Source: a bacterium
GTDB lineage: Bacteria; Patescibacteriota; Minisyncoccia; Phycocordibacterales; CAIZLB01
NCBI GenBank assembly: GCA_031411135.1
Contig: JANOAN010000013.1
Coordinates: 30,581 to 94,580, forward strand
Direction of reading: 5' to 3'
DNA: 64,000 nucleotides
Shown here: piece after piece, positions 2,529 to 19,144 of the stretch
Layout of the letters: the number at the start of each line of letters is the position of its first letter
How positions within the stretch are numbered: position 1 is the first letter of the stretch
Position numbers and translations under genes: made by a program
The notes under the pieces: generated by a model
Databases searched by the model: none
Seen by the model: only the letters and a program-made list of their open reading frames with translations
What the model was told of the DNA's origin: nothing

Positions 2529-3152
2529 ATGATGTACCAAATGGAACAAAAACCTCCTTCTCAGAATATCTTAGTCTCACTTTTTATCGGAATCGGCAAG
2601 TTTTTTTCAGGAGTCTTTAACTTTCTCTTTGCCGGACCAATTTTCACGATTTTTTTAGTAGCCATTATCCTTATTCGAATTTTTATCGCAGAACCATTCT
2701 TGGTTTATGGAAGTTCAATGGAGCCCAATTTTGAAACTGGTGACTATTTGATTGTCGACGAGTTGACTTATAAATTTGAAAGTCCTAAACGTGGTGACGT
2801 TGTAGTGTTAAAACCTCCTATGGATGAGGCCAAACACTACATAAAGCGCATAATCGGACTTCCTGGTGAGACTATTTCTGTAAATGGTAGTGTGGTTATA
2901 ATCAAAAATAAAGAACACCCCGAAGGCTTCACTTTAAATGAGCCATACATCACTTTCCAAAGTGATCGTGTTGCTAACTACGATTTGAATAATCACGAAT
3001 ATTTTGTTATGGGAGACAATCGTGCCGTCAGTTCTGATTCTAGAATCTGGGGACCACTCCCTGACAACTTAATTACAGGACGTGCTTTAATAAGAGTACT
3101 ACCTTTGAAAGACATCGGTATTATGCCTGGGAAGGTTAACTTGCCACAATAG
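2529..3152 (+). CDS. lepB: signal peptidase I
   Basis: N-terminal TM anchor, catalytic Ser box GSSMEPN, and the KRIIGLPGE and GDNRxxSxDSR boxes. Confidence 0.85.
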   Translation: MMYQMEQKPPSQNILVSLFIGIGKFFSGVFNFLFAGPIFTIFLVAIILIRIFIAEPFLVYGSSMEPNFETGDYLIVDELTYKFESPKRGDVVVLKPPMDEAKHYIKRIIGLPGETISVNGSVVIIKNKEHPEGFTLNEPYITFQSDRVANYDLNNHEYFVMGDNRAVSSDSRIWGPLPDNLITGRALIRVLPLKDIGIMPGKVNLPQ

Positions 3153-4494: not shown

Positions 4495-4740
4495 CTATTT
4501 CTTAGAAGACGTAGCCGTGCTACTTGCTGGAGATTTTGCTGTTGTCGCCTTTTGCGGTTGTGGCGCTTGAGCTGACTGAGCTAATCTAATTTGGTCATTC
4601 AAAAAATTAACAACTTGAGTTAGTACTATATGATCTTCGTTAACTACTGCTCGAAGTTTATAAATTGTGTAAGCCTGGAAGCCAAAAACCGCTACGAATA
4701 TTCCTAATATAAATGGGGTGATAAATGATTTAATTTGCAT
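4495..4740 (-). CDS. hypothetical small membrane-anchored protein with an Ala/Ser/Thr-rich tail
   Basis: 81-aa ORF, one TM helix, low-complexity C-terminus. Confidence 0.4.
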   Translation of the reverse strand: MQIKSFITPFILGIFVAVFGFQAYTIYKLRAVVNEDHIVLTQVVNFLNDQIRLAQSAQAPQPQKATTAKSPASSTATSSKK

Positions 4741-4854
4741 ATGAAAATTATAGCATTTATAAGTAAAATAAAAACAATTTTTGTAAAAATATATGTGGAT
4801 AATTTAGATTTTTACATATTTGCTTTAAATCAAAATATATTGTATTATTTTTCT

Positions 4855-5136
4855 ATGAACTGTTCATTTACGTTTCCAGGGGACATGTCCCCAAATCAAA
4901 CCCTCGTTGCATCTGTGAGGACACCCGACCAAGTTGCGCTTGAAAAAGTCGCGGCTGAGAAGCCGGGCTTCACAAGTTTCACTTACGGGACTATGTCCAA
5001 GAGTACTGATGGCAATGCCATTTTTCCAATCTTTGCAACAGCAAAGGACGATGTGCTAGTCTGATAGCATCACTCGTTTGAGGATTTCAGAATCGCCTCT
5101 CTCCGGCCACAATCGGAGGGAGGCATTTTCTTTTTG
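4855..5136 (+). ncRNA. candidate small RNA of unknown family (alternatively a 70-aa ORF 4855..5064)
   Basis: A ~280-nt GC-rich block lies in an otherwise AT-rich 400-nt gap between two minus-strand genes. An AT-rich promoter-like tract (TTGTAA/TTTACA...TATAAT-like) sits upstream. It ends in a strong plus-strand intrinsic terminator, and no SD precedes the ATG. Internal hairpins are present (ggggacatgtcccc; cggcu-GAGA-agccg). Confidence 0.3.
5096..5136 (+). terminator. plus-strand rho-independent terminator
   Basis: 10-bp stem cctctctccg/cggagggagg with one G·U pair, stable only as plus-strand RNA, followed by cattttctttttg. Confidence 0.55.
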
Positions 5137-5137
5137 T

Positions 5138-5566
5138 CTATTTTGCTTTAGCAACTTCCCTATCCAAAGCCTGGACCATAATACTTCCTGATTTTAATTG
5201 CTCAGAATACAGAATATGATTTCTAGAAATTTCCATGAAATCTTCTGGGTTGTGAATGTTATCTTTAATAGAAACAATATCTATTGAGTCTGCACTCGAT
5301 GATGCATTTTGTTTTAAGTAATGGGTCTTATGAAGTGTAATACTTGATGAAAAAGGAACTGTTACAAATTTACCAAAAAATACTTGATTATTGTCTAGGA
5401 AAACGGCTTTCCATGAATTCATCTTCACAAAAAAGGAAATAATTAACCATAGGATAAATATAATTGCCAAAATAAAAACTCCTAGTTTTACCAAACTAAT
5501 ATTTCTAATTTTTCTGAATGATACTTCACTGGCTGGGTTTAAAATTGTTTTTGCTCTTGGTGCCAT
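5138..5566 (-). CDS. hypothetical N-anchored protein, last gene of the surface-protein operon
   Basis: 142 aa, N-terminal TM helix. Lies 22 nt downstream of the giant gene on the same strand. Confidence 0.5.
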   Translation of the reverse strand: MAPRAKTILNPASEVSFRKIRNISLVKLGVFILAIIFILWLIISFFVKMNSWKAVFLDNNQVFFGKFVTVPFSSSITLHKTHYLKQNASSSADSIDIVSIKDNIHNPEDFMEISRNHILYSEQLKSGSIMVQALDREVAKAK

Positions 5567-5588
5567 ATATTTTAATATTATACACTAA

Positions 5589-8500
5589 CTAGTTATTTGT
5601 TGCTTCTGGTGCCGGTGCAGCTGTTGCTTCTGGTGCTGCAATCACTTCTGGTGCTGGTGTAGGTGCAGTTTCAGTTTGCGGAGCTACAGGTTCAGAAACT
5701 GTAGGAATTACAGATGTTGGTGTTGTTGGCACGGGGTCAATTATAGTTTCAGTAACTGGTGGGGTTGTAACTTCTGGTACCAAAACTGTAGTTGTTCCTA
5801 GATTATTTTCATTAGACGAAACTGGTGTTGAATCCCCTGCACCCCCAACACCTACGGTTGATGTTGCGCCTTCTGATGAAACCCTGTTTTCATCGATAGA
5901 CAAAGTAGTTGATGTTGTTGTGGTTGTTGATGTATTTTGGTTAATATCATCTGTCGTTGTTGATGTATTTGTTGATGAAATAATTGTACTAATTTGATTA
6001 TCAGCATCATCCTTTGATTTGTAAGTTTTTACAAAGAACCAGTCGAATGAAATGCTAGATTGAGCTGGATGAACAATCCTGACCAAGAATCCTTGTCCTG
6101 CTCGCTTTTCAGCTACGAACAATGGTACATCTGTTGCAGAAGTTGGGGTCAGGAATACGTTTGAATTTTGATCAATTTGATTATTTTCAATAAAGACTTC
6201 CATTGTGCTTGTCGCAATGAAACCAACACCCGCAAGCTCGTTAGTGCCCGATGGCACAAAGATACTTCCTCCTGGCAAAATAGCTAGCACTTTGACAAAT
6301 GCTTGTTTTACATTCAATGCAATTACTGTAATTTTGTTTACCACCAGTGATGATATGTTCTGTGCCACTGATGTTATTGACATTGCAATGTCTGAAATAC
6401 TTGTATTTGCTAAGTCTACAATTTTTGACATCAAATCATCTCCTGTTTCAGTAAGCATATCAATAGTAGATGACGCGATGTCCAGTGTAGTGGTTGCATT
6501 GTCCAAATCATTTGAAGAAATTGTCTCCATTCCTATGAACACCATTACTGTTGCAGCTTCTGTCGAGTCACTGCCGTCGTATGCAGACATAGCACGTCCT
6601 ACAACACGTCCCGGATGTGTTGCCTTCGCGGCTTTTCCTGGCTCGGTGCTAGTCATCAAATAATCCCCGATAACAATTGGACCATTTTCAAGAGTGACTT
6701 TTACAGGTACGCGTCCTGCTAGTGCTACAGGGATGGCTGTGGCGCCATCAATTGTGGCATCCTGCTGTGATAATCGTAAGGCAGGATTTTTTGAATATAT
6801 ACCAATAACATTTTTGTCATTTGTGCCTGATGATTTTGTTACCAATCCGTGTTCGTGAACATCAATACTAATTACATCGCCCGCTTCTAAGGTGTCGTCT
6901 CGTGTTGGATAGTCCTCGGCTATGTCATATGCACCAAAAGCGGTATTAATACCATGACTAAACCTGAACACACCAGTGTTTAGATTTCCTGTATTTGCGA
7001 ATGAATTATTGTCTCCAAAAAACTGAATAGTACCTGTATTTAAATTTCCGTTTACTTCACCTCCACCCTGACCAGAGTTTGCATTAAACATAAGGTTATA
7101 GGATTCCTGACCAATAAAGTTATATGAATAGACTTCTGCACCGTTTGCTTTTCCTGTACCGAACCATAGATCTCCGTTATAAATATTTATTGAATAAACT
7201 CCTGTGATAGCATTAGATGCGGCACCTGTGATCACTCCGGCTGTGGTACTTGAAACTCGAGTCCAGTTATTACCAATATCTAATTGATAAACTTCGGCGG
7301 TATTACTTGTGTCTACAGTACCTACATAAAGGTTACCCTTATAAACTCCCATTGCACCAATTGAGTCGATACCCGTTGTTGCTCCCACGTCTTCCGCAAT
7401 AACACCAACTGTTGAACTAGATACCACCTGAAAGACGTTTGTTGCACCGGCTGCTGTTGCGGCGGTACTGTCCCATTTCAATACACGTGCAGTACCAGCA
7501 CCGTCACTGATACCCAGATAAAGTTTACCGTTAAAATTAGACATTGATGTAATAGAGTCTACGGCGGTAATTGCAACACTTTGTCCAGCAAACGTACCAG
7601 CTGTGTTTAAAATAGTGAAACCGTTACCAGGTGTAGCACCCGGGCCATCATATCTATAGAGACCTGCAGCATTCAGCTTGTTTCCTGCAACATACAGGGT
7701 ACCCAGGTAAGTGGCCATAGCACTGATCTTATCGACCAGTGTGGTTGCTCCAATTGTACCGGCGTTAGTTAAATGAGAGACCTTTGTCCAGTTGTTGTTG
7801 TTTCCTGTTCCAACATCATATCTATACACTTCAGCTCCTCCAGTTTTCTGAGTACCGATATATAGAAAACCTCCATTAACAGTCATGGCTGACACAGCAT
7901 CAATTGCAGTTGTTGTTGCAGTACCACCGATTGCCCCAGCAGTACTACTTGAAATCAAACTCCATGTCGTACCACCTCCATATCTGTAAACTTCAGCTGC
8001 ACCAGTTTTACCGGTACCAATATATAATTGTCCGTTGTATACAATCATTGAAGCAATTGAAGTGATCGCTGCCGTTCCTCCACTTGCAATTGTTCCAGCT
8101 GTCGCTTGAGACACCTTTGTCCAGTTACTTGTTCCACTATCAAATCGGTAAATTTCTGCCGCTCCAGAAGAAGATGCGGTTCCTGCATACAGTGATCCAT
8201 TAAAGACAGTCATTACAGTTGTTGAACCAATACCTGTCGTTCCTGCAGAGCGGATTTGGCCAACTGCTGTTGATCGAGTTGTCCAAGTAGCTGTGGTTGA
8301 AGCTTGAGATCCGACTAAAACATTCCCCATCACGGTTAATTTTTCAGAAGGTGATGTTGTACCAATACCTAAACGTTTGTTTGTGTTATCCCAGAAGAAG
8401 TTACTGTCAGCGTTGAATGCACCTGTAGTTGAGAACTGTACATACCCATCTGAACCACTTGGAGTACCCGCACCAACCCCTCCGATTGTTGTCCACGAAC

Positions 8501-11500
8501 CAGCAGAGTTCTTAAACTGCATTGTTCCTGCATTGTCTCTGAATCCATATCCGTTTGTTCCAGTGGCAACTGTTCCGAAGTTTAGATACCTAGACAGTCC
8601 CTCGAGCCAGACGTCACCATTTACGTCAAGTTTAGCGGCGGGAGTAGAAGTTCCCAAGCCCAAATTTCCTGATGCAGTCACTGTAACTAATCTTGTATTA
8701 GAAGATGATGATATCGCTAACAAATCTGTTGTTGGAGTACTCGATGTTCCATAAATATCCAATTTTGCAGATGGAGTGGTTGTTCCGATTCCAACAGTTC
8801 CAGTTGAGGATGCAACATAAACTAAATTTTCCAAACTAAGCGCACCGCTAGTATTTTTTAATGGAATATTTGGCAAGTAAAATCCAGTAGAATCAATACT
8901 GACAGTTTTGTTTGGTTGTTGATACGCATAAACCCCACCCGGTGCACCGTTAACATTGTCCATGTATTGAAGTTCCAACCTACTAGACAGTGATGTTGAT
9001 GAAATGTTTGTTATATAGTTATTAAATCTTCCAGTTGTGTGAGTGTTTTGAGCACTATCTTTTGCTCCAAATGCATAGTGTCCCGCAATATTTCCGTTTG
9101 CTGCGGTTGCTTGGTTGTAAAGTACAAAAATACCACCAGTACTGTAATCAATAACTTGCATTCTACCTGAATTAAACATTTCCAATATTAGTCTATTACT
9201 ACTATCTAATGCTGCAATAGTTCTTGATGTTGTATCAGTTGTACTGCCTGTAACGGTAAATCGTCCGTATTCTGTTGGCGAGGCAATTAATTGACTACCT
9301 GCAAAATATGACTTTGCGGCAGATCCATTATAAATTGAATAATTATTCGTTGTACCAGCACCCCCTGTACCACCATTACCTGTTATGTATAAACCGTAGT
9401 TATTAGTTGTACCTGCACCAGAACCAGAACCTAAAAATATCTGCCCACCGAAGTTATTAACTGTTCCCCCAGAACCCGCAGCAGCTGTGTGTCCTCCAAT
9501 TAAATATCCATAGTTATTGATAGTGCCAGATGTTGTACCATTACCATTTGAAAAACCAGCAGATACAAACCCAGAGTAATTCGTAAAAGGCAAAGTGCCG
9601 GACTGAGTAGGTGCTCCTGCATAAAATCCATATCCACTGGAAATCAATCCTGTATAACTTGCTGCGGTGTCTACTCGACTGTATGTTCCAAACACATTTG
9701 ATATAGGAGCGGAACTGTTGGCAATAGTGGGTAAGTTAATTAGACCGAAAACACTACTCACAGAAGCTCCTGTTGGGGTAATTACCGAACCATTATAAAA
9801 ACCATTGATTTGCCCAGTATTCGAAGAACTGACAGTTCCGGAAAGCTTAAGTAGAGCGTCCCCCCCTGATGTTGTGGTTAAAGTTCCACCTACATCAAGT
9901 TTTGAAGTTGGAGCAGAAACACTCAAACCAATGTTTCCGTTGGCTGCTACTGTAAATATTCTGGAATTTGATGAAGAAGATACTGCAAATATATCAGTTG
10001 TTGGAGCAGTGGATGTTCCATATACATCTAACGTGGCAGTTGGAGAGGTTACTCCAATACCAACTAACCCTGCTGTATTAATTGTAAACTTTGTTGAATT
10101 AAAGTTTGCCTGATTTGTAGATATTTTAAATTTACTGGAATCATTTGAATCAAGCCCCATGGACCAGGCTTGATTATTTGTTTTCAAGAAAGTCAGGAAC
10201 GTTCCAAAAGAATTCGCGGCTGAGTTTTCTAAAACAACTTGAGTTTTTGTTGAGGTTGCGATAAATCTAGCAACATCCTGAACACCAATTCCGGCTACAA
10301 CATCTAGATAAAAAGTAGGAGTTGTTGTTCCAATACCGACATTACCAGAACCAGCAGCAATAGCAATCGCGGCCTTCGAATGTGTTCCGTTTATCAAAAT
10401 CGATCTTTCTGATGTTGAATCATCTTGAATACTTGATGACGCTATACCTCCAATAAATCCACCGGTGTTTTGACCCGTAAAACCTAAACCAACCTGAAAT
10501 TGACGGCCGAAAGCATTTGAAATTAAATGTGCTGCTGCGGTGTTTGCATTTCCAAGAGCGTTACTCCAAATAGCGGTTGGTGAATATCCCGTAGTGTTAT
10601 ACGTTGTTGCAAGTGTCCCATAGTTCGCTGCGTCAATTTCGGCCCCAGTATACTTCCCAGTATCATTATCTCTTCTTCCAAGGAAGAAACCTCCAATTCC
10701 CGCACCCGTACCGGAACCAGTAATCCTACCTACTCCATAAACTCCTAACGCATCATTTTCTCCACCACCACCAGGATTTGATGTCGAATCATTTAAACCA
10801 AAACCAGAAACCCCGACAGGTTGAACTTCTGTACCACTTACACCTTTAGCAATACCCACAATGGCTGAATAGGCTTCAACACCATCACCATTAATGCTGT
10901 TTGCAGTTGCAATTGCATCAGTAATAGAAAGAATTCTTTCAACCTTAAGTCCTGGATTTGTATTTTGATCAGGTGAAGCGGTTGTACCTATTCTAATTCC
11001 CAATTCTTGGGCCGTTGTTGTGTTATACATTTGAACAGCATCACCTGTTCCAATTGAAAGTCGTGACCAAGGCGAGGTTGTTGCAAGACCCAACCTTCCA
11101 TTCGCAGTGACTGTAAATATTCTCGCATTTGATGAAGATGAGACTGCGAACAGATCCGTAGTTGGCGCACTTGATGTGCCGTAAATATCGAGTCTTGCAG
11201 ATGCAGAAGAAGTACCAATTCCAAAACTCGATGAAATTGCTGCCGTAGTATTTCCGAGAATAAATTTGTTTGAACCACTTGTAGCTTCTGAATATAATTT
11301 CCAATTTGGCGCACTATTACTGCTATACCAACTAATAGCATTGTTTTTTGCCAACGCTATTGCAGGAGGTGTTGGATCAGTTGAAGTACTGATTGCATCA
11401 GCAGAGATTATAATACCACTGTTAAAAAGTCCTCCATTTGGAGTAATTTGAATAGCAGCAGTAACACTAGTAAATGTTCCAGGTATAGTACTCGTCCCTG

Positions 11501-13211
11501 AATCAACACGAAGACCAAATGTTCCACCTGGAACATTGTCTAGGTACGGAGTCGTAGAGACAGATGTCCAGTGATTTCCTACGCTAATTTCCGCACCGAA
11601 AGTTTGCAAACCCTGATTCCCTGATGCTTCTGTATCCGCCTCTACATAAATACCCCACGCTGTATGAGCTACAGTCGGATGGTCGTTCACAGCCAAAAAA
11701 TCGGCACCTATTACCGCACTACTTGTTCCTCCAGTATTATCCCTTGCACGTGAAGCAAATACCCCGCCTGCAAGACCGAATGGACTAACTGCGTAAACGC
11801 TGTGCAAAGATGGATACTGAGCACCGCTGAGATAATCTTTTGGCCATGCAGCAGCAGAAGCAGAACCAAAGTATCCATAGTCAGCATAAGCTATACCGCT
11901 TACTGATAGTGGAAATGCAGGACTTGAGCTGCCAATCCCCACATTCCCTTCCGCAGTGATGGTAAACAATCGAATGTTTGTAGAAGAAGCGATAGCAAAA
12001 ATATCTGTCGTAGCACCAGATGTTCCAGTAATAGCGAGTTTTGCTGAAGGTGAGGTGGTGCCGATACCAACGTTTCCGCCAGAGGTGATTCTTAGTCGTT
12101 CAGTTCGTGAGACTGATCCATCAGCTGTAGTGAGGAATCTTAAGTAGGTAGGCAAAGAAGTAGTGCTCACAGTTCCTGAATCTACTATAGCCTCAATACC
12201 TGAGGTATGTCTAAAAGCACTGCCGGCATATCCTCCGAAAATATTAAATCCTAGTCTATCTCCTGCTACCACATCAGTTGGTAAGGCATCAGTACCACGA
12301 GCATATCTTGCCAAAACTCCTCCACCAGCATTAACGTTTGTTCCCCCGTAAGAATCAAGATTTAAGGTCAATGCAACAGTGGCGTTACTTTGAGTCACTT
12401 TAAAGGGTGAGTTTGCTGATGTTGTATAGACATGAAGGAGTGCGGAGGGTGTACTCGTACCAATCCCCACATTCCCCGCTGCGTTCACTGTAAACAACCT
12501 CGCATTTGTAGATGAAGAAATAGCAAATATATCGGCTGACCCAGCGGTGCCATATATATCGAGTTTGGCGGATGGGCTACTTGTCCCAATTCCCACATTT
12601 CCATTCGATAATAAATCCAATGCGATAACACTACTCGTTCCTGTAAATGTAGCTATATGCCCAGTTCCAAGTTGTCTAATATCCAAAAAAGTACTCGCGG
12701 TATTCGTAGAATTAATTGCATCCGCTCTCAAAAACTGATCCGATGAGAGCCCATTTAAATATTGTGATTGAATTGCCGCAGGTACCGCTCCCAATTTTTT
12801 ACGTGGACTCATTTCTCCGTCATACGACGGTGCTCCTGTACCACCAATGTTTACCCCTAAATAAAGCGTCTGATTAAAATCAACTCCGGTAAATGCAGTT
12901 GTACTTCCAAGCATTACTGAAAACAAACCATTTGTTACCTGCACTTTGTTTGCACCAGTATCAGTTTCAGTCCAAACAGGTGTTGTAGTTGAATTGTTTA
13001 CATACAATTTAAATTCAATATTGTACAAACCATCAGCAACTGCAACACCTGCATTATCAGTCAGTTTTCCCTGGTAATTTATTTGTTGGTTAATGGCAGC
13101 ATCTGCCACCAAGACTCTGACCCCCCATATTGCAAATATTAAAACAAAAGTTCCAATTATAAAATTGAAATTTAGTTTGCTCTTATTTTTCTTTAAATGA
13201 AATATACTCAT
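5589..13211 (-). CDS. giant (2540 aa) Gly/Thr/Ser-rich surface protein with an N-terminal signal-anchor, tail-fibre-like repeats, a 7-bladed beta-propeller region and a Thr/Pro-rich C-terminal stalk
   Basis: Single uninterrupted ORF. N-terminal TM/signal (IIGTFVLIFAIWGV). At least 5 copies of a ~45-aa repeat (TDIFAISSSxNxRIFTVxAxGNVGIGTxxPSAKLDxxG). Seven LYxGT..G.AEVYRYD..W..VS blades. The C-terminus is TTPPVTETIIDPVPTTPTS...APAPE. Confidence 0.85.
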   Translation of the reverse strand: MSIFHLKKNKSKLNFNFIIGTFVLIFAIWGVRVLVADAAINQQINYQGKLTDNAGVAVADGLYNIEFKLYVNNSTTTPVWTETDTGANKVQVTNGLFSVMLGSTTAFTGVDFNQTLYLGVNIGGTGAPSYDGEMSPRKKLGAVPAAIQSQYLNGLSSDQFLRADAINSTNTASTFLDIRQLGTGHIATFTGTSSVIALDLLSNGNVGIGTSSPSAKLDIYGTAGSADIFAISSSTNARLFTVNAAGNVGIGTSTPSALLHVYTTSANSPFKVTQSNATVALTLNLDSYGGTNVNAGGGVLARYARGTDALPTDVVAGDRLGFNIFGGYAGSAFRHTSGIEAIVDSGTVSTTSLPTYLRFLTTADGSVSRTERLRITSGGNVGIGTTSPSAKLAITGTSGATTDIFAIASSTNIRLFTITAEGNVGIGSSSPAFPLSVSGIAYADYGYFGSASAAAWPKDYLSGAQYPSLHSVYAVSPFGLAGGVFASRARDNTGGTSSAVIGADFLAVNDHPTVAHTAWGIYVEADTEASGNQGLQTFGAEISVGNHWTSVSTTPYLDNVPGGTFGLRVDSGTSTIPGTFTSVTAAIQITPNGGLFNSGIIISADAISTSTDPTPPAIALAKNNAISWYSSNSAPNWKLYSEATSGSNKFILGNTTAAISSSFGIGTSSASARLDIYGTSSAPTTDLFAVSSSSNARIFTVTANGRLGLATTSPWSRLSIGTGDAVQMYNTTTAQELGIRIGTTASPDQNTNPGLKVERILSITDAIATANSINGDGVEAYSAIVGIAKGVSGTEVQPVGVSGFGLNDSTSNPGGGGENDALGVYGVGRITGSGTGAGIGGFFLGRRDNDTGKYTGAEIDAANYGTLATTYNTTGYSPTAIWSNALGNANTAAAHLISNAFGRQFQVGLGFTGQNTGGFIGGIASSSIQDDSTSERSILINGTHSKAAIAIAAGSGNVGIGTTTPTFYLDVVAGIGVQDVARFIATSTKTQVVLENSAANSFGTFLTFLKTNNQAWSMGLDSNDSSKFKISTNQANFNSTKFTINTAGLVGIGVTSPTATLDVYGTSTAPTTDIFAVSSSSNSRIFTVAANGNIGLSVSAPTSKLDVGGTLTTTSGGDALLKLSGTVSSSNTGQINGFYNGSVITPTGASVSSVFGLINLPTIANSSAPISNVFGTYSRVDTAASYTGLISSGYGFYAGAPTQSGTLPFTNYSGFVSAGFSNGNGTTSGTINNYGYLIGGHTAAAGSGGTVNNFGGQIFLGSGSGAGTTNNYGLYITGNGGTGGAGTTNNYSIYNGSAAKSYFAGSQLIASPTEYGRFTVTGSTTDTTSRTIAALDSSNRLILEMFNSGRMQVIDYSTGGIFVLYNQATAANGNIAGHYAFGAKDSAQNTHTTGRFNNYITNISSTSLSSRLELQYMDNVNGAPGGVYAYQQPNKTVSIDSTGFYLPNIPLKNTSGALSLENLVYVASSTGTVGIGTTTPSAKLDIYGTSSTPTTDLLAISSSSNTRLVTVTASGNLGLGTSTPAAKLDVNGDVWLEGLSRYLNFGTVATGTNGYGFRDNAGTMQFKNSAGSWTTIGGVGAGTPSGSDGYVQFSTTGAFNADSNFFWDNTNKRLGIGTTSPSEKLTVMGNVLVGSQASTTATWTTRSTAVGQIRSAGTTGIGSTTVMTVFNGSLYAGTASSSGAAEIYRFDSGTSNWTKVSQATAGTIASGGTAAITSIASMIVYNGQLYIGTGKTGAAEVYRYGGGTTWSLISSSTAGAIGGTATTTAIDAVSAMTVNGGFLYIGTQKTGGAEVYRYDVGTGNNNNWTKVSHLTNAGTIGATTLVDKISAMATYLGTLYVAGNKLNAAGLYRYDGPGATPGNGFTILNTAGTFAGQSVAITAVDSITSMSNFNGKLYLGISDGAGTARVLKWDSTAATAAGATNVFQVVSSSTVGVIAEDVGATTGIDSIGAMGVYKGNLYVGTVDTSNTAEVYQLDIGNNWTRVSSTTAGVITGAASNAITGVYSINIYNGDLWFGTGKANGAEVYSYNFIGQESYNLMFNANSGQGGGEVNGNLNTGTIQFFGDNNSFANTGNLNTGVFRFSHGINTAFGAYDIAEDYPTRDDTLEAGDVISIDVHEHGLVTKSSGTNDKNVIGIYSKNPALRLSQQDATIDGATAIPVALAGRVPVKVTLENGPIVIGDYLMTSTEPGKAAKATHPGRVVGRAMSAYDGSDSTEAATVMVFIGMETISSNDLDNATTTLDIASSTIDMLTETGDDLMSKIVDLANTSISDIAMSITSVAQNISSLVVNKITVIALNVKQAFVKVLAILPGGSIFVPSGTNELAGVGFIATSTMEVFIENNQIDQNSNVFLTPTSATDVPLFVAEKRAGQGFLVRIVHPAQSSISFDWFFVKTYKSKDDADNQISTIISSTNTSTTTDDINQNTSTTTTTSTTLSIDENRVSSEGATSTVGVGGAGDSTPVSSNENNLGTTTVLVPEVTTPPVTETIIDPVPTTPTSVIPTVSEPVAPQTETAPTPAPEVIAAPEATAAPAPEATNN

Positions 13212-14746
13212 AAGAAGACAAATCTAATCAGGAACAACAGGAACCACAGGGTAATTAAAACTAAAGCCAACTTGGCAACAGGGGGCACGATCGTTGATGC
13301 AAAACTTTTGAGCTTCGAGACAAAACCTTTATCAACAACTTCCCCTTTATTATCAACTGATTTCATAGAAAACAAACCAGTGGCAATAACCGCCTCCTGA
13401 CCACCTAATTCTAGCATCTTTACGTAAAATTTATAGTCACCTTGGTAGGCAAAAGCGGGGACAACTACCCCAAATTTCCTCTCACTGTCGTCTTTATTCA
13501 ATAGATACCCAAATCTTTCATTAAAAATATTTCCATCAACACATAAAACCAATGTCGACCCATCAAATCTAGGATTTTTGTCAAAAGGAATTTCAAGTGT
13601 CATTGGATAACTTGAGTCCAATTGAATATTTGAACCATTTCTATATACAGTTTTTTTATTTTGCAAAAATCTAATATTTGACGCATCCAAATTCAAAGTA
13701 TTTGGGGTCGTCTGAGGATAACCTAAATCATTCTTATTGGTGAATAAATTGTCAGTTATTGAGCAAATATTTGGACGTCCTATATTTTTATTAATAGTAC
13801 CTGTCAAAATTTCACCATCTGAATTAGCTGTAAATATATAAGGTTTTCCATCAACCAATAGTGGATCCTTTGGTTTTGCAGGTACAGAAGTGGTCGCAAT
13901 ATTTGTTGTTGTGTTTTTTGGTTTTTTATAGGTTAATTGCAAAATTGCTGGTCCTGAAAAGTTTCCGCTCTTGTCGCTTGAAAAAAGCGAATAGTAATAC
14001 GTAACACCTTCTCTTACATCCAAATCTGAAACATTTTCCCCTGCTCCCTCATAAATAATTTTTCCTGAAAATTGATCTTTTGGAAAGCTAATGTCAGATC
14101 GAACAAGTTTTACTTTAGAAAAATCCAAATTTTTTGGATTTGTCCATCTTAGAAGAGTAAAGTCAGGTGCCAATGCGTACCTAAATTCAGATGGTGGAGG
14201 TGGCGCATCATTATCAATTGATGCAGTTGTCACAAAATCTCCTTCAAAGTGAAAAACTCTGCTCAAAGTATCAGTTAAAGTTAAGTAATAGTAATAATGC
14301 GTTGATGGTAATAAGTTTTCAACACGAATATTAAATTGTTCATGGTACCAAGATTCTGCCAAAGAGCCTATTTCATATTCTCCTTTATTTCCCCATGATA
14401 ATGTCATGTGGGATGCAAATTTTGTTTTAAAAACGATAACCGCATGGTCTTCTGAAGGTACAACTTCTATTTCGTCCACCAAAAAATCTGCTGTGGTAAA
14501 TGGTGTAGTAGTGGCAGTTGAAGTATTGTTTGTGGAACCTGAACCACTTGGAACAACAGGAGGTGGTGGGCAATCTGCAGCGCAAGTGGCAGTTGTTTCT
14601 CCGATCATGGGTTCACAAACTGTATTAAGATTACAAGACGCAACATTTAAATAAACATTTACTGATCCTGCCAGTGCAACTTTAGACGAAACTAAACCTA
14701 TAAAAATGAGCAAAAATGCGACCTTGCAAAAAAATTTCATGTCCAC
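13208..14746 (-). CDS. type-I membrane protein with signal peptide, Cys-rich module, FN3-like domain and C-terminal TM anchor
   Basis: 512 aa. Signal MDMKFFCKVAFLLIFIGLVSSKVALA. Cys-rich module CNLNTVCEP...CAADCPPPP. FN3-like stretch (PPPSEFRYALAPDFTLLRWTNP...YYYSLFSSD). C-terminal TM LALVLITLWFLLFLIRFVFL. A 4-nt ATGA overlap with the giant gene implies translational coupling. Confidence 0.7.
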   Translation of the reverse strand: MDMKFFCKVAFLLIFIGLVSSKVALAGSVNVYLNVASCNLNTVCEPMIGETTATCAADCPPPPVVPSGSGSTNNTSTATTTPFTTADFLVDEIEVVPSEDHAVIVFKTKFASHMTLSWGNKGEYEIGSLAESWYHEQFNIRVENLLPSTHYYYYLTLTDTLSRVFHFEGDFVTTASIDNDAPPPPSEFRYALAPDFTLLRWTNPKNLDFSKVKLVRSDISFPKDQFSGKIIYEGAGENVSDLDVREGVTYYYSLFSSDKSGNFSGPAILQLTYKKPKNTTTNIATTSVPAKPKDPLLVDGKPYIFTANSDGEILTGTINKNIGRPNICSITDNLFTNKNDLGYPQTTPNTLNLDASNIRFLQNKKTVYRNGSNIQLDSSYPMTLEIPFDKNPRFDGSTLVLCVDGNIFNERFGYLLNKDDSERKFGVVVPAFAYQGDYKFYVKMLELGGQEAVIATGLFSMKSVDNKGEVVDKGFVSKLKSFASTIVPPVAKLALVLITLWFLLFLIRFVFL

Positions 14747-14787
14747 TAATTATACATCAAAAAACTTTTTTTATTAAGGAAAAAAAA

Positions 14788-15558
14788 CTATAAAGTAGTC
14801 GCTGTTACCGTAACCGAAGCCGAGTACCCAGGAGAAGCCTCTTGAATTGTAGCCGATCCAATTTCTACCCTATATTTTATAGTGGTCGTTGCACCTGTTG
14901 TGTTTGGTCCTGATGATTGAGAAATGGTAATTGGGGTTGTTGAAAAACCATCCCAACAAGCATTAGCAGTATCGCTTGTTCCAAAATTACAAGATGCACC
15001 ATTATCTTTGTATCGTTGGACAATATCTGTTCCCTCTGGACTAAATCCAAAATACGCCTGACTACTTGTAACTGTAAACGAATAATCTGGATTAGCTCCT
15101 GATGGTACATAATCAGGGATTGAAGTATTCGCAGATTTCAGAGCCGGACTAGTCGAGGCCACAATAGTTAACTGATAACCCAAGGAATTATTAGTCGTAA
15201 CAACCCAATCACTTGAACTTGTCGCCACACCTCCTGTTAAACCACTGATATTTGGTAATGAGACTCCACTTGGTGAATTAATTGTTATATAGGTAGAACT
15301 TGCTGCAGTATACTGCCAAAATCCAGCGTCATTTAGACGATAATTCGTACTTGATGAGAGTCCCGTAGCAACCTCACCGACTGAATCAGAAACTTTATAA
15401 TTTGTACTATTTGATAAATTTGTACCACCAGCATTAACAGAATCAGAATCTATTCTGTAATTTGAACTACCCATTGTATACGCCATTAGAGATACTGGGA
15501 AAAAATATATCAACACTATAGCGCAAAAAATTTTATGCATATTTTTTTTATCTTTCAT
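14788..15558 (-). CDS. secreted small surface protein, paralogue of 16649..17296 (WxL-like)
   Basis: Signal peptide. Three SNYR(I/L)xD repeats. Shared block DWVVTTNNSLGYQLTIVASTSPA...SGQAYFGFSPEGTD...GYSASVTVTATTL. Confidence 0.65.
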   Translation of the reverse strand: MKDKKNMHKIFCAIVLIYFFPVSLMAYTMGSSNYRIDSDSVNAGGTNLSNSTNYKVSDSVGEVATGLSSSTNYRLNDAGFWQYTAASSTYITINSPSGVSLPNISGLTGGVATSSSDWVVTTNNSLGYQLTIVASTSPALKSANTSIPDYVPSGANPDYSFTVTSSQAYFGFSPEGTDIVQRYKDNGASCNFGTSDTANACWDGFSTTPITISQSSGPNTTGATTTIKYRVEIGSATIQEASPGYSASVTVTATTL

Positions 15559-15623
15559 TTTGCTAAATAAATTGGAACTTTTAAAGAAACTAGTAACAAC
15601 AAGAGTACCCAGACTTTTTTTTA

Positions 15624-16577
15624 CTATCTCTTCTTAAATTCAAACTTTTTAGTAAACAAGTAGATCAAGAAGAATACAACAAACAGAATTGCCAAGACTG
15701 AAACAATATACATCCATGGTAAAACCCAAAAACCTAGGTCCTTTTTATCAATCATATTGGAATATCCTCTATGTAATTCTAAGTGAGCATTGTAATATCC
15801 AAACAAAAATTCTTTTGGCCATGTCACCTGTCTGTACCTTAGTGAATTTGGTAGTGCAAAGTAAGCATCAACTGGTATTTCAGTCACTTTTTGTCCAAAA
15901 ATATTTGTAATTGTTAGCATTCCGTATGGCACAAGGTGAATATTTCCTGAATTTCTAAAAAGCATTTCAAAAGTCAACGGACCATTTTGTAACACTCCAA
16001 ACTTTGGACCAGTCACCCTCATTTCTTCAAGTGAACCTGATTCTTTAACATCTCCATTTATTCGTATAAAAAACAAAACACCAACTCGTGAAATTAACCT
16101 CGTACCCGCTGCCCCTCCATCCGTAGAATTATCAGGAACACTCGACACAATGACGGTTGTATAAAATCCTCCTGGCTGAGCATCCTTTGGAGCAGTAATA
16201 GAAACGGGTATTTCAATTTTTTGACCAAGGTCTAAATTAAAGCTATTTGTGTCTGGTTTAATATTATCCTTGAATGAATACGGGCTTTTATCATTTCCAA
16301 GCAAAATTACTGGGGTTTCTGGATTTTGAGAACCAATAAAATCTTCTGTGCTAACTGTAAACTTTTGCTTTCTATTAATTCTACTAGTTACTGCAATATT
16401 TTTAACAACTGTCTCTCCAGGGTTCATAAATATTTCTATTTTTCCAGGCTCTAGTACGAAATCACCTCGATCGTCTGCTCCGCTGTTAGTTATAGTATAA
16501 GCATCTGCAGTACTACTCATTCCAAATAGTGCTATTCCCAGAATTAACGTGTTTAGTATTGTTTTTTTAGCAACCAT
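15624..16577 (-). CDS. cell-surface protein with N-terminal signal and C-terminal TM anchor (DUF916/DUF3324-like, as in WxL loci)
   Basis: 317 aa. The N-terminal half (FVLEPGKIEIFMNPGETVVKNIAVTS) and the C-terminal half (VLQNGPLTFEMLFRNSGNIHLVPYGMLTI...W...GYYNAHLEL) resemble DUF916 and DUF3324 respectively. Ends with a TM helix and KKFEFKKR. The family assignment is from memory and unverified. Confidence 0.6.
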   Translation of the reverse strand: MVAKKTILNTLILGIALFGMSSTADAYTITNSGADDRGDFVLEPGKIEIFMNPGETVVKNIAVTSRINRKQKFTVSTEDFIGSQNPETPVILLGNDKSPYSFKDNIKPDTNSFNLDLGQKIEIPVSITAPKDAQPGGFYTTVIVSSVPDNSTDGGAAGTRLISRVGVLFFIRINGDVKESGSLEEMRVTGPKFGVLQNGPLTFEMLFRNSGNIHLVPYGMLTITNIFGQKVTEIPVDAYFALPNSLRYRQVTWPKEFLFGYYNAHLELHRGYSNMIDKKDLGFWVLPWMYIVSVLAILFVVFFLIYLFTKKFEFKKR

Positions 16578-16648
16578 GTTGATTGTATTACATTAAGTGT
16601 ATGGTGATAAACCTACCACCAATATCCTATAAAGTAAAATTGGATTTT

Positions 16649-17296
16649 TTATGAGGCAGTTGCTGTAGCTGTAATTGTAGCCTGATAATTACCAGCTGGG
16701 ATGTATGTATTGTTTTGCTCTACTGCGTAGCAAACGACTGAATCAACACCTGATGGAGTCGTTGTAGAAGATCGACTAGCGATTTGCACACCTGACGTTG
16801 TGAATCCCTTGTATTTTAGAGTAGTTGAAGTACCGTTTGGAGTACTGTAACAAAGTGAGCCTGTTCCCCATGTACCTGTTGGTACATCCGTCCCGAAAGA
16901 TGAGTAACCGAAGTATGCCTGTCCTGATGTTGCAACCCAAAGGTTAGGAGCACCTGTCTGGTAATCCGCAATACTGTTTGGAGTTGTTGTTGAATTCATA
17001 GCAGGAGTAGAGGTTGCCTGCACAGTCAGTGTATATCCAGTAGCACTGTTTGTTTTAACATTCCATGTTGTTGTTCCGTTTGCCGAGTTCTGTGCAACAC
17101 CCAGTGCCGTGCTCATGTTTGAGTTTGAAGGACTTGTGATCGATACACCTGATGTTACGTTTAATGTGATAACAACAGAACTACTTGCAGTTGCTGCTCC
17201 GGCAGTAGCGGGTTCAATAATTGAGTAAGCACCTCCTAGTAGGAGTACCGAGACCAGAGAAGCGGCTGTGGATTTTTTTATAAGTGGTAACAACAT
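16649..17296 (-). CDS. secreted small surface protein, paralogue of 14788..15558 (WxL-like), first gene of the operon
   Basis: Signal peptide. TTWNVKTNSATGYTLTVQATSTPA...SGQAYFGYSSFGTD...AGNYQATITATATAS. A 190-nt AT-rich promoter region lies upstream. Confidence 0.65.
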   Translation of the reverse strand: MLLPLIKKSTAASLVSVLLLGGAYSIIEPATAGAATASSSVVITLNVTSGVSITSPSNSNMSTALGVAQNSANGTTTWNVKTNSATGYTLTVQATSTPAMNSTTTPNSIADYQTGAPNLWVATSGQAYFGYSSFGTDVPTGTWGTGSLCYSTPNGTSTTLKYKGFTTSGVQIASRSSTTTPSGVDSVVCYAVEQNNTYIPAGNYQATITATATAS

Positions 17297-17485
17297 TTTT
17301 TTAGATTATTTTTTTATTAAGGTGTTTTTATTTCGGGAGATTTTTAGATTATTTTTTAAAGATTCTAAACAATCAACCCTATGCGTGTAATTATACATTA
17401 AAAAATAAAATATTTTCAATAATAAGTGTGGATAACTAATCTTTGATACTTGAAAAAAAATTATGTAATTCAGAAGCAACTAGAG

Positions 17486-17758
17486 TTAGAGTGCTTTTTC
17501 TTTCATAAGAATTTTTATTTTGTTTGAAGCTCCGCGATTATATCCTCCTGTTTTTCCATCCGAACGTATGACCCGGTGGCATGGAATTTTTGGATCGTAG
17601 TTTTTGTTGAGGATGTTTCCGACGGCACGTACAGCTTTTGGGTTTCCGGCTTTTTTAGCAACTTCTTTGTACGTTAAAGTGTATCCTTTTTTTATTTTTC
17701 TAACTACGTTATAAACTTTTTCAGTAAAGTTTTCTATCATTAGCGATGTTTTTCGCAA
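17486..17758 (-). CDS. methylated-DNA-protein-cysteine methyltransferase DNA-binding/active-site domain protein (minimal MGMT, 90 aa)
   Basis: Active-site PCHRV with the preceding helix-turn-helix (YKEVAKKAGNPKAVRAVGNIL). Confidence 0.75.
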   Translation of the reverse strand: MRKTSLMIENFTEKVYNVVRKIKKGYTLTYKEVAKKAGNPKAVRAVGNILNKNYDPKIPCHRVIRSDGKTGGYNRGASNKIKILMKEKAL

Positions 17759-18168
17759 TTGCAGTTGATGAAGTTATCTATAGAGTACTTACCCGCTCCG
17801 AAAAGGACGATTGCTATTGCTGTCAACATCAACATAAATGGATATTCATAGCCACCATTAGCCAAACTGAATCCCTGAGCAAATAGTACCTTAACAGCAA
17901 CGGCCATAATAATTGCGATCAAAACCGCTGCGGCTCGAGTGAACAAGCCTAACACTAGGGCAACCCCTCCGATAAACTCAGCGTATGCGACAAAGTACGC
18001 CATCCAAGCAGCGAATCCGATTTTTCCAAAAAATCCTATAACCATGTCGATATTGGCAATTTTATTCCAACCTGAAACGATAAAGACTATACCGATAGCA
18101 ATTCGTAAAATTAAATAGCCGACGTCTGGCTTGTGCATTTTTTCAATAGTGTGGTGAATGATTTTCAT
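17740..18168 (-). CDS. DoxX family membrane protein
   Basis: 4-TM DoxX pattern (LILRIAIGIVFIVSGWNKI...). 19-nt overlap with the downstream MGMT gene. Confidence 0.7.
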   Translation of the reverse strand: MKIIHHTIEKMHKPDVGYLILRIAIGIVFIVSGWNKIANIDMVIGFFGKIGFAAWMAYFVAYAEFIGGVALVLGLFTRAAAVLIAIIMAVAVKVLFAQGFSLANGGYEYPFMLMLTAIAIVLFGAGKYSIDNFINCNCEKHR

Positions 18169-18223: not shown

Positions 18224-18481
18224 TTAAGAACCTTTTTGGACTTTCTTAGAGTAATGAAAGATTAGTTTAAAAAGCTTTTGGACAAATATTGGGTCTATTT
18301 TCTTCTTCTTTGAGATAGACGAGAGTTTTGCAAGCAATTCCTGCTCCCTTTTAGGCTGATTAATGGCTATTTTATTTTGCTTTTTATATATACCGATCTC
18401 CCTTGAGACTTTCTGGCGCTCAGCTAACAAAGTCAGTAGTTGTAAATCAATTTTATTTATTTTACTTCTTAAATTTTGCAT
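18224..18481 (-). CDS. chorismate mutase (AroQ-type) domain protein
   Basis: LRSKINKIDLQLLTLLAERQKVSREIG matches the AroQ helix-1 consensus (R..ID.ID..ll.Ll.eR..l...ig). Confidence 0.6.
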   Translation of the reverse strand: MQNLRSKINKIDLQLLTLLAERQKVSREIGIYKKQNKIAINQPKREQELLAKLSSISKKKKIDPIFVQKLFKLIFHYSKKVQKGS

Positions 18482-18482
18482 A

Positions 18483-19144
18483 CTATTTTATTTCAAGTTC
18501 CGTGCTGGCTTTTTGTCCTGGGCGCTTAATGATTAATTGTGTTTCTGGAATATCAAGTTCCAAATTATCAATAATTTTTTGTGCTACTTCGTCCACATCC
18601 ATAAATTGATCAAAGTTTGCAGGGACGGCTTCGTTAAACAACTCAGTCTTAATACCTCCTGGGTACACTCCGATAATATTTATATGTGAAGGTTTTAATT
18701 CTTCTCTTATCGTGTTAGTAATCCACGCAAAGCGTATTTTGTTGCCACATACATTGCACCACTTGAGCCATTCATACCGTCAAAAGCCGTTGTGGATATT
18801 ATGTTTACAATAGTTCCACTTCCCTGTTTTTTCATTTGACGAACTGCAACGCGGGTGCCATTTATAGTTCCAAATAAATTTATATTGATTAAGTTCCTAG
18901 CTTTTTCCATGTCTAAATTTTCAATCGGCTCTGGCGGGAGCCACACCCCGGCGTTGTTAATCCAGATGTCGATGTGACCGATTTTTTCAGCAAAGGAGGT
19001 TAAGACTTTCTCATCAGTTACATCATAGTTTGCCCTACTGCAGGTGGAGACCTTTGCTCCTTTTGCAATGAGAATTTCAGACATGGCTTTTCCTAGGCCT
19101 TTGGTTCCGCCGGTTATGGCGATGACTTTATTGGAGTGGTTCAT
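18483..19144 (-). pseudogene. short-chain dehydrogenase/reductase (SDR) split by a 1-nt frameshift
   Basis: The N-terminal ORF has TGGTKGLGKA, NNAG and YVATK. The C-terminal continuation (TNTIREELKPSHINIIGVYPGGIKTE) lies in the +1 frame. The shift maps to ggattactaacacg near 18700. Confidence 0.7.

Follow-up and report, generated by a model that had tools for sequence, protein, structure and literature searches.

A candidate usher-less Pam/WxL-type surface fibre cassette carrying a giant modular fibre protein in Paceibacteria

Bacteria of the candidate phyla radiation (CPR), or Patescibacteria, account for a large share of bacterial diversity and live mostly attached to other cells, and to our knowledge no mechanism is known by which the class Paceibacteria recognises and holds its hosts. 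A stretch of 64,000 nucleotides from contig JANOAN010000013.1, here called the window, gives this question a concrete form. Between its positions 5,138 and 17,296 it carries six genes for exported proteins, one of them 2540 amino acids long, which an initial annotation had compared with the WxL-type cell wall complexes of Firmicutes. What is built by these genes on a cell which is most likely a wall-bearing monoderm CPR bacterium of the class Paceibacteria? The reading that is modestly favoured here is an usher-less surface fibre of Pam/WxL type, assembled by a chaperone anchored in the membrane and by donor strands, and carrying a variable fibre for host recognition. The cassette is proposed to be a minimal relative of the Pam pilus, with a chaperone homologous to the WxLIP proteins of Firmicutes.

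Pam pili have been described in Ca. Mycosynbacter amalyticus as donor-strand-exchanged pilins, with a PamA/B filament seen by cryo-EM, PapD-like chaperones bearing a C-terminal transmembrane helix (PamC/D), a single-domain tip pilin (PamT) and PamR, an RbmA-like FN3/transmembrane anchor with an extra N-terminal strand. They have no trans-envelope machine, a co-localised tail-fibre-like gene and an ATP synthase neighbourhood, and were reported in Saccharimonadia and Microgenomatia (bioRxiv 10.64898/2026.03.03.709456). The preprint mentions neither DUF916/WxL nor Paceibacteria (bioRxiv 10.64898/2026.03.03.709456), and the WxL papers in the literature searched mention neither CPR nor chaperone-usher systems. 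Homology to WxLIP can be demonstrated for the 317 amino acid protein of the window, and distant homology to PamT for its long pilin. The locus therefore links two literatures, that on WxL and WxLIP in Gram-positive commensals and pathogens and that on the Pam pilus of CPR, which in the material searched do not cite each other. The six open reading frames were found where the initial annotation had placed them, all in the same direction on the minus strand, and are in gene order:

16649-17296, minus strand: short pilin-like subunit, 215 amino acids
15624-16577, minus strand: WxLIP-like protein, 317 amino acids
14788-15558, minus strand: long pilin-like subunit, 256 amino acids
13208-14746, minus strand: FN3/transmembrane type-I membrane protein, 512 amino acids, GTG start
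5589-13211, minus strand: giant secreted fibre protein, 2540 amino acids
5138-5566, minus strand: small N-terminally anchored protein, 142 amino acids

All six proteins have an N-terminal hydrophobic signal or anchor segment, as had been claimed, and the 317 and 512 amino acid proteins have a C-terminal transmembrane segment in addition.

The WxLIP-like protein and the pilin-like subunits

Searches of Pfam, NCBIfam and PHROGs with the six window proteins yielded no WxL, DUF916, DUF3324 or fn3 match at E<=1, and the 317 amino acid protein by itself matched no family of Pfam (E<=1) or NCBIfam. Its link to DUF916 is visible only at the level of the family and not from the single window protein. 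Thirteen of 34 family members match the Pfam model WxLIP_PGBD (PF06030, DUF916) with a best E of 4e-8. A sister clade from CPR, 44% identical to the 317 amino acid protein and comprising more than 1,600 clusters, mostly carries PF06030, and some of its members are named 'DUF916 domain-containing protein [Ca. Paceibacterota]' by the Prokaryotic Genome Annotation Pipeline. The family profile detects EfmWxLIP1, the WxLIP1 of Enterococcus faecium (PDB 9i25, 9i1y), at E 3e-7, and hhalign against eight Firmicutes WxLIPs fetched from plasmids gave a probability of 96.9% and an E of 1.4e-10 over 294 columns, covering the DUF3324 part and the transmembrane helix; for the DUF3324 half the backing consists of this profile-profile comparison and the structural one. 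The AlphaFold2 model (predicted local distance difference test, pLDDT, 88.8) consists of two beta-sandwiches and a transmembrane helix. Foldseek placed the WxLIP structures 9i1y/9i25 first (E 8e-12), followed by RbmA with poor TM-scores and then by CfaA, CsuC, Caf1M, DraB, FimC and PapD (E 1e-9 to 1e-6), these chaperones of chaperone-usher systems having better TM-scores than RbmA. The remote homology of the 317 amino acid protein to WxLIP, with the architecture DUF916-DUF3324-transmembrane helix, is real, which bears out the earlier assignment of its two halves, and its modelled fold makes it a candidate two-domain chaperone of PapD/CfaA type. Two of its segments are of particular concern:

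16059-16136, minus strand: loop of residues 148-163 (low AlphaFold2 confidence), followed by strand R164-VGVLFFIRI-173 (model and hidden Markov model alignment)
15645-15716, minus strand: transmembrane helix, residues 288-311, followed by the cytoplasmic tail KKFEFKKR (model and sequence)

The strand after the loop has five alternating hydrophobic residues, with R164 and G166 invariant, and we take loop and strand to resemble the F1-G1 loop and G1 donor strand of the PapD-like chaperones of chaperone-usher systems. In the hidden Markov model alignment residues 147-169 fall on residues 123-145 of EfmWxLIP1, which form the WxLIP hairpin. According to an AlphaFold2 prediction the hairpin takes on order and fills the gap in the WxL sandwich with an inserted strand, by which the sandwich is completed (PMC10599100), and PDB 9i25 is a deposited structure of WxLIP in complex with a long WxL. 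Loop and strand of the 317 amino acid protein are the positional equivalent of the hairpin and would act as strand donor. The helix and the KKFEFKKR end noticed in the initial annotation are both present. Residues 311-317 of the tail (15624-15644, minus strand) are conserved, with the consensus FEFKRK and an invariant F312, which hints at a cytoplasmic or lipid-facing interaction not described for WxLIP.

The two small proteins are paralogues, as had been noted (35% identity over 148 amino acids, E 6e-15; hhalign probability of 100% at family level), and their fold matches the donor-strand pilins of the Csu, Cfa, Fim, Pap and TasA-like types. The pilin model also resembles TasA, the TasA-like protein (TLP), CanX and DUF1102 subunits. 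For the 256 amino acid protein AlphaFold2 predicts a confident beta-sandwich at residues 90-256. What had been described as threonine-rich tails of the small proteins is the conserved last beta-strand of this fold and not a disordered tail. Against the sequences in the PDB the profiles of the small-protein families retrieved BtpiA alone (E 0.09-0.36), on which no paper was found in the literature search; one member of the short family matches Caf1 at E 0.0025. The segments proposed to connect subunits are:

17147-17185, minus strand: candidate donor strand of the short pilin, residues 38-50, SSSVVITLNVTSG, alternating hydrophobic (family consensus)
15301-15471, minus strand: three tandem repeats of 19-20 residues, (S/T)NY+hxDSxG, residues 30-86 of the long pilin (alignment, AlphaFold2)

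The short subunit has a signal peptide, the conserved post-signal strand SVVITLNV, one beta-sandwich domain and two conserved cysteines, and is free of the repeat extension seen in the long pilin. The motif [VI]x[VIL]xLx[VI] is found in 65 of 92 short pilins and about 35 of 65 FN3/transmembrane proteins as compared with 10% of background open reading frames, and the post-signal strand presumably serves as donor. A Glu-Pro pair (IEPxxxxA) is located at residues 28-30 of the short pilin (17207-17215, minus strand), in or just after the signal peptide, with E28 conserved to at least 90% and the proline in the majority; it is unusual for a Sec signal and might be a special processing site.

The long subunit consists of a signal peptide, a conserved N-terminal extension of 55 amino acids and a pilin-like beta-sandwich with an invariant cysteine pair. 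Residues 33-85 have a pLDDT below 50 and are predicted to be disordered in the monomer. The repeat region belongs to the most conserved parts of the family (S31, Y34, D39, G45, S51, G61, E62, G66, Y73 and G79 are invariant) and could act as a multi-strand donor or as an adaptor segment. The 30 long-family members tested all match the NCBIfam model NF058579, 'CPR-type pilus protein PamT', with a best E of 2.6e-17 and an E of 2e-11 for the window protein, which by sequence is a distant homologue of PamT and not an equivalog. In public annotations the gene starts at an internal methionine (228 amino acids at NCBI, 232 in Logan), by which the signal peptide is lost; the alignment of 30 homologues favours the long form of 256 amino acids (14788-15558, minus strand, in the window; 2157-2927 in the related locus L001).

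The 512 amino acid protein comprises a signal peptide, an N-terminal strand SVNVYLNV which resembles the VVITLNV of the short pilin, a cysteine-rich knot, two FN3-like modules, a variable domain and the C-terminal transmembrane segment. By analogy with PamR it is a candidate anchor or terminator. It had been described as an FN3-containing type-I membrane protein coupled to the giant: the ATGA overlap and the C-terminal helix stand, and the FN3-like modules are detected weakly, by a Pur_ac_phosph_N match at E 0.35 in the window protein and by a weak hit and a faint fn3 match in homologues. Gene callers favour a slightly shorter form of this gene.

How much of this would equally suit a WxL-type wall complex without polymerisation? 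In this explanation, which was the proposal of the initial annotation and which we rank as the main rival and consider doubtful, the two small proteins would stay bound for good to the WxLIP homologue, at membrane and cell wall, through an inserted strand; no pilus would be formed, and the complex would either coat the surface or serve as a tether for the giant. A WxL cluster as defined by Hassan & Williamson has at least one WxLIP and at least two WxL proteins within four genes. The 317 amino acid protein is a WxLIP by significant homology over its full length, with signal peptide, DUF916 peptidoglycan-binding domain, DUF3324 host-binding domain and C-terminal transmembrane helix, and the order of small protein and WxLIP is that of the Firmicutes clusters. 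The two proteins with a WxL domain (PF13731) were not found: the initial annotation had assigned the small proteins to this class, but neither of the two window proteins nor any of the 30 long and 37 short family members (67 in total) matches Pfam WxL at E<=1. The dual W-x-L motif, located on adjacent strands in WxL domains, is absent, the small proteins having one W-x-V, and GY-x-L in place of GW-x-L, and hhalign of their families against 12 WxL domains remained below 2% probability with E 0.03-0.15. A greedy alignment of the short-pilin family with WxL is collinear over the whole domain, with GYxLTV opposite the first GWxLxV motif and YtATiTaTA at the C-terminal end opposite YsTtlTWxL, and its score of 15.3 against 10.2 +/- 1.6 lies above all 150 column shuffles; the long family does not rise above its shuffles, 19 of 150 of which reach the observed score. 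A diverged WxL domain in the short pilin is thus an open hint from sequence and not a family membership. A large Firmicutes WxL protein, used as query against the PDB, did not retrieve the WxL chain of 9i25. That the window has single-domain subunits only and no rod pilin of PamA/B type suits a WxL complex. A large protein with a C-terminal WxL domain is missing from the locus, the giant being conserved at its N-terminus and ending in a low-complexity T/P/A tail with no WxL similarity, and there is neither an LPXTG partner nor a sortase. Comparison with the loci of Enterococcus and Lactobacillus, as had been suggested, gave agreement in gene order and none in the WxL domain; profile searches likewise yielded PF06030 at family level (13 of 34), no WxL and fn3 only faintly in a homologue. 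To the expectation that WxL-type attachment would be unusual outside Firmicutes the answer is no.

The giant protein and the spread of the cassette

In the usher-less fibre favoured here the part that is mounted would be the giant. It has no cysteine and is rich in threonine, glycine, serine and alanine. Across loci the giants range from about 1,000 to more than 2,600 amino acids and share only the first 150-220 residues or so (46-59% identity), the remainder being swapped. The regions distinguished in the window protein are:

12762-13100, minus strand: N-terminal domain, residues 38-150 (about 115 residues), directly after the signal peptide, AA/INQQINYQGKLT... (cross-locus identity)
8412-12614, minus strand: fibre shaft with GNVGIG / SPSAKLDI repeats (PHROG and PDB matches)
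7032-8294, minus strand: six AEVYRY-type repeats, residues about 1640-2060, beta-propeller-like (repeat positions; weak Pfam match to KIB1-4 beta-propeller, E 0.0095)
6300-6956, minus strand: C-terminal module, residues about 2086-2304 (also present in the large proteins that Kaiserbacteria-type loci have upstream of their cassette)

The mature N-terminus opens with an invariant INYQGKL strand. Retention of the N-terminal domain alone, with everything behind it swapped, is the pattern expected of a docking module, and the domain is a candidate docking or adaptor domain. The shaft matches the tail fibre PHROG 9942 (E 4e-19) and fragments of Bdellovibrio MAT (mosaic adhesive trimer) fibres in the PDB (8ol4, E 8e-9; 8ojn, 2e-5; 8ond, 4e-4). 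The AEVYRY repeats are a probable distal binding region, and the giant of one relative contains a Peptidase_S74 domain. Shaft homology, a conserved domain after the signal peptide and a variable remainder together place the giant with the MAT and tail-fibre proteins.

The 142 amino acid protein, which has its transmembrane segment at residues 19-52 and is thus N-anchored as had been stated, has no match among Pfam, NCBIfam or PHROG families. Its gene occurs only in the two closest relatives (L007 and L012), whose giants also share the C-terminal part of about 1000 amino acids, and this co-occurrence makes it a candidate fibre-specific helper.

With one peptide pattern of the 317 amino acid family the cassette was found in at least 154 species representatives of Patescibacteria among GTDB genomes. 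The relatives are CPR metagenome-assembled genomes labelled Paceibacterota, Parcubacteria, Nomurabacteria, Taylorbacteria, Kaiserbacteria and Jacksonbacteria. When the six window proteins were mapped onto all open reading frames of 85 loci, the order of the first five genes was retained in 70 or more of 80 related loci taken from these representatives: short pilin (one to five tandem copies), WxLIP-like protein, long pilin, FN3/transmembrane protein and giant follow each other in nearly every locus with an adequate contig. This recurrent arrangement is far above chance and supports the earlier suggestion of a system dedicated to the giant. In the related locus L070 (4424-9985), from a Paceibacterota metagenome-assembled genome, the WxLIP-like gene has five pilin paralogues upstream of it. 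Those of 464 and 619 amino acids have two domains and give matches to the haloarchaeal TafC at E 6e-16 and 2e-10 and to PamT at E 3e-6, and are possible rod pilins with no counterpart in the window locus. Proteins of 464-619 amino acids with a C-terminal pilin domain are found in L070 and in a further relative, L051. Three cassette contigs are labelled Burkholderiales (L045, 267 kb, 35% GC), Bdellovibrionales (L048) and 'archaeon' (L028) and look like mis-binned or mislabelled CPR sequence.

Do cassette and giant belong together, or are they two adjacent and independent functions, a thin Pam-like pilus made by the four small genes and a separate secreted or S-layer-associated adhesin which does not dock on it? 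The latter is judged improbable. The giant gene directly follows the FN3/transmembrane gene in most loci, with a 4-nucleotide overlap in the window, although one locus has a helix-turn-helix gene between cassette and giant, and Kaiserbacteria-type loci have instead a large protein upstream of the cassette with a different N-terminus. The N-terminal domain of the giant has no detectable homology to the pilins, which suits independence; against this stands that only these 115 or so residues are conserved in an otherwise swapped protein and that Pam neighbourhoods retain a tail-fibre-like gene as well. A prophage or phage-tail remnant, with the giant as tail fibre and the small genes as phage accessory proteins, would account for the PHROG match and for the Peptidase_S74 domain in a relative, and is rejected as extremely improbable on genomic context, as the other five proteins have no PHROG match, signal peptides and transmembrane anchors occur throughout, the flanking genes that were scanned, left and right, comprise housekeeping and metabolic ones (hisS, lepB, a HAD-family hydrolase and a P-type ATPase) with no phage function detected, the cassette occupies different chromosomal contexts in more than 150 species, and the GC content of the locus is not distinct from its surroundings.

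Proposed assembly and its setting

The gaps between the six genes are, in gene order, 71, 65, 41, -4 (the ATGA overlap) and 22 nucleotides, a spacing from which co-transcription appears likely. The AT-rich promoter region which the initial annotation had placed upstream of 17296 is a spacer of 189 nucleotides with 21% GC, and it holds the best-scoring sigma-70-like site in the scanned range 4600-17800. The signals at the two ends are:

17390-17419, minus strand: sigma-70-like site TTGAAA-18-TATAAT, 11/12 consensus match
5095-5124, no strand assigned: GC-rich hairpin with a 12-bp stem between operon end and convergent gene, likely a bidirectional terminator (sequence)

To the observed homologies, folds and gene order the favoured reading adds protein-protein contacts, polymerisation, an order of assembly and a role in host binding as a proposal. 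All six products would be exported by Sec, and the 317 amino acid protein would stay tethered to the membrane by its C-terminal helix. Its loop and strand would temporarily complete the beta-sandwich of the pilin-like subunits by donor-strand complementation. The short pilin would then polymerise or stack by strand exchange through its post-signal strand VVITLNV, and the 512 amino acid protein, with its look-alike strand SVNVYLNV, would terminate the structure and anchor it to the membrane, as has been proposed for PamR. The long PamT-like pilin with its three repeats would be the adaptor to the conserved N-terminal domain of the giant. The giant itself, a presumably trimeric fibre of phage-tail-fibre or MAT-like type, would bind the surface of host or prey with its variable distal part, the propeller-like repeats and the C-terminal module.

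Several points weigh against this proposal. RbmA stands high in the Foldseek list, and by its modelled fold the 317 amino acid protein may have the role of an anchor instead of a chaperone; NCBIfam gives no PamC, PamD or PamR match for its family. The PamT score of the long pilin is 44 bits (44-60 in its family) against an equivalog cut-off of 240 bits, and the match covers profile positions 7-130 of 241, the N-terminal half only. Major pilins of the two-domain PamA/PamB type, with a nine-strand N-terminal domain, a linker strand and a truncated Ig C-terminal domain, are absent from the open reading frames of the window operon. The N-terminal domain of the giant has no relative in Pfam or the PDB, and, signal peptides aside, its profile is similar to neither the pilins nor the anchor. 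The operon structure is based on gene spacing and a single consensus promoter match. An ATP synthase neighbourhood was not found among the 20 window open reading frames scanned, most smaller ones being outside the scan.

What is new is a minimal Pam/WxL-type cassette in Paceibacteria which is hard-wired to a giant modular fibre. It suggests that WxLIP acts as a tethered chaperone, and it puts forward a candidate holder for MAT or tail-fibre-like fibres on a bacterial surface. A constant module for assembly and anchoring combined with a swappable giant fibre is the layout expected of a host-range determinant. In a wider and tentative reading, possible rather than probable, a single ancient system of surface assembly in monoderms would have branched into the WxL clusters of Firmicutes, the Pam pili and the Paceibacteria cassette, the cassette being a dock for tail-fibre or MAT-like fibres held by their constant N-terminal domain. 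If this were true, a membrane-anchored PapD-like chaperone (WxLIP, PamC/D, the 317 amino acid protein) would complete and hand over subunits with an incomplete sandwich, WxL domains would be diverged pilin-like subunits, and the long pilin might use its three repeats to contact the three chains of a trimeric fibre.

Among the surroundings of the operon is a signal peptidase I gene at 2529-3152 (plus strand), about 2 kb from the operon end, which brings to mind the SipW/TafD peptidases that are dedicated to TasA and Tafi fibres. A dedicated peptidase of this type was rejected, as no lepB is found among the genes called in six related loci, and the gene is probably a housekeeping lepB. Just upstream of the promoter region a small DoxX/HvfX-like membrane protein is encoded at 17740-18168 (minus strand; E 2.5e-17, below the model cut-off); other loci gave no sign of a connection between it and the cassette. 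Within 18224-19144 (minus strand) an open reading frame of 145 amino acids matches about half of the SDR oxidoreductase profiles (positions 58-165 or so of about 250-280) and is followed by one of 85 amino acids; it may be a frameshifted or truncated gene. The large open reading frames scanned in the window encode CTP synthase, FtsEX, RF2, GltX, a Na/H exchanger and similar proteins. At 55072-61472 (minus strand) an Eco57I-like/TaqI_C type IIG restriction-modification methylase of 1037 amino acids overlaps by 4 nucleotides with an SNF2 helicase of 1096 amino acids which bears an N-terminal PLD-nuclease domain, a pair that looks like a defence system.

Comparison with known systems

With the WxL clusters of Lactobacillales and Bacillales, which comprise a small WxL, a large WxL and a WxLIP and include the Csc clusters, the locus has in common the WxLIP architecture of signal peptide, two Ig-like domains, transmembrane helix and disordered hairpin, a small secreted beta-sandwich protein whose gene lies immediately upstream of that for the WxLIP, a surface protein of very large size with many domains, and the extracytoplasmic location of all products. 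In enterococcal and lactobacillal plasmid clusters (L087, L090, L092-L094) it is the small WxL gene that lies directly upstream of the WxLIP gene, in the position of the short pilin, and some of these clusters are flanked by very large 'pectate lyase-like adhesive' proteins. The differences are that the small proteins here have neither a WxL family match nor the two W-x-L motifs, that the giant has its conserved module at the N-terminus and large WxL proteins have their WxL domain at the C-terminus, that an FN3/transmembrane protein is present and an LPXTG protein is not, and that the organism belongs to Patescibacteria and not to Firmicutes.

The Pam system is likewise from CPR and has Sec signals on every component, a PapD-like protein of two domains that ends in a transmembrane helix, a PamT-type pilin (here a distant homologue), an FN3 protein (here with FN3-like modules that are weakly detected) which likewise ends in a transmembrane helix and bears an additional N-terminal strand, cysteine pairs, a tail-fibre-like neighbour and no usher or secretin. 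The 317 amino acid protein corresponds to PamC/PamD, which are PapD/FimC-like with a C-terminal transmembrane helix, at the level of architecture and fold. In contrast to Pam, the window has no two-domain rod pilins of PamA/PamB/PamE type (the relative L070 does have two-domain pilins), one chaperone in place of two, a PamT score far below the equivalog cut-off and no ATP synthase among the 20 open reading frames scanned; it comes from Paceibacteria, and its giant fibre is an integral and translationally coupled member of the operon.

Archaic and alternate chaperone-usher pili (Csu, CupE, CFA/I) give the best or nearly the best structural matches for both the chaperone-like and the pilin-like folds, and their chaperones share with the 317 amino acid protein an alternating hydrophobic strand after a flexible loop. 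CPR have a monoderm-like envelope. An outer-membrane usher (PapC/FimD) was found neither in the six operon proteins (Pfam, NCBIfam) nor in the scanned flanking open reading frames nor among the called genes of six related loci (Pfam). The cassette thus differs from chaperone-usher systems in having no usher and no outer membrane, a chaperone anchored in the membrane, no relationship at the sequence level, and an extension of 55 amino acids with three repeats on the long pilin, as compared with an N-terminal extension of 10-20 amino acids.

Fibres formed without a chaperone (TasA, the archaeal bundling pili or Tafi, and cannulae) resemble the pilin model and have no PapD/WxLIP-like partner. The two-domain pilins of L070 match TafC of Tafi (E 6e-16). 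Unlike in TasA and Tafi systems, a signal peptidase gene is not kept beside the cassette in the six related loci.

MAT fibres of Bdellovibrio bacteriovorus have a domain that is conserved, rich in beta-strands and about 130 amino acids long directly after the signal peptide, the surface partner of which is unknown (PMC10769870). Their shafts, like those of phage tail fibres, are similar in sequence to that of the giant (E 8e-9 to 4e-4), and the layout is the same, with a signal peptide, directly after it a conserved beta-rich N-terminal domain (about 115-130 amino acids) and a variable distal part. Both occur in organisms which attach to other cells, and the S74 chaperone-protease domain is found in a relative of the giant, although not in the window giant itself. 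What distinguishes the giant from MAT fibres is the conserved cassette that is genetically linked to its N-terminal domain.

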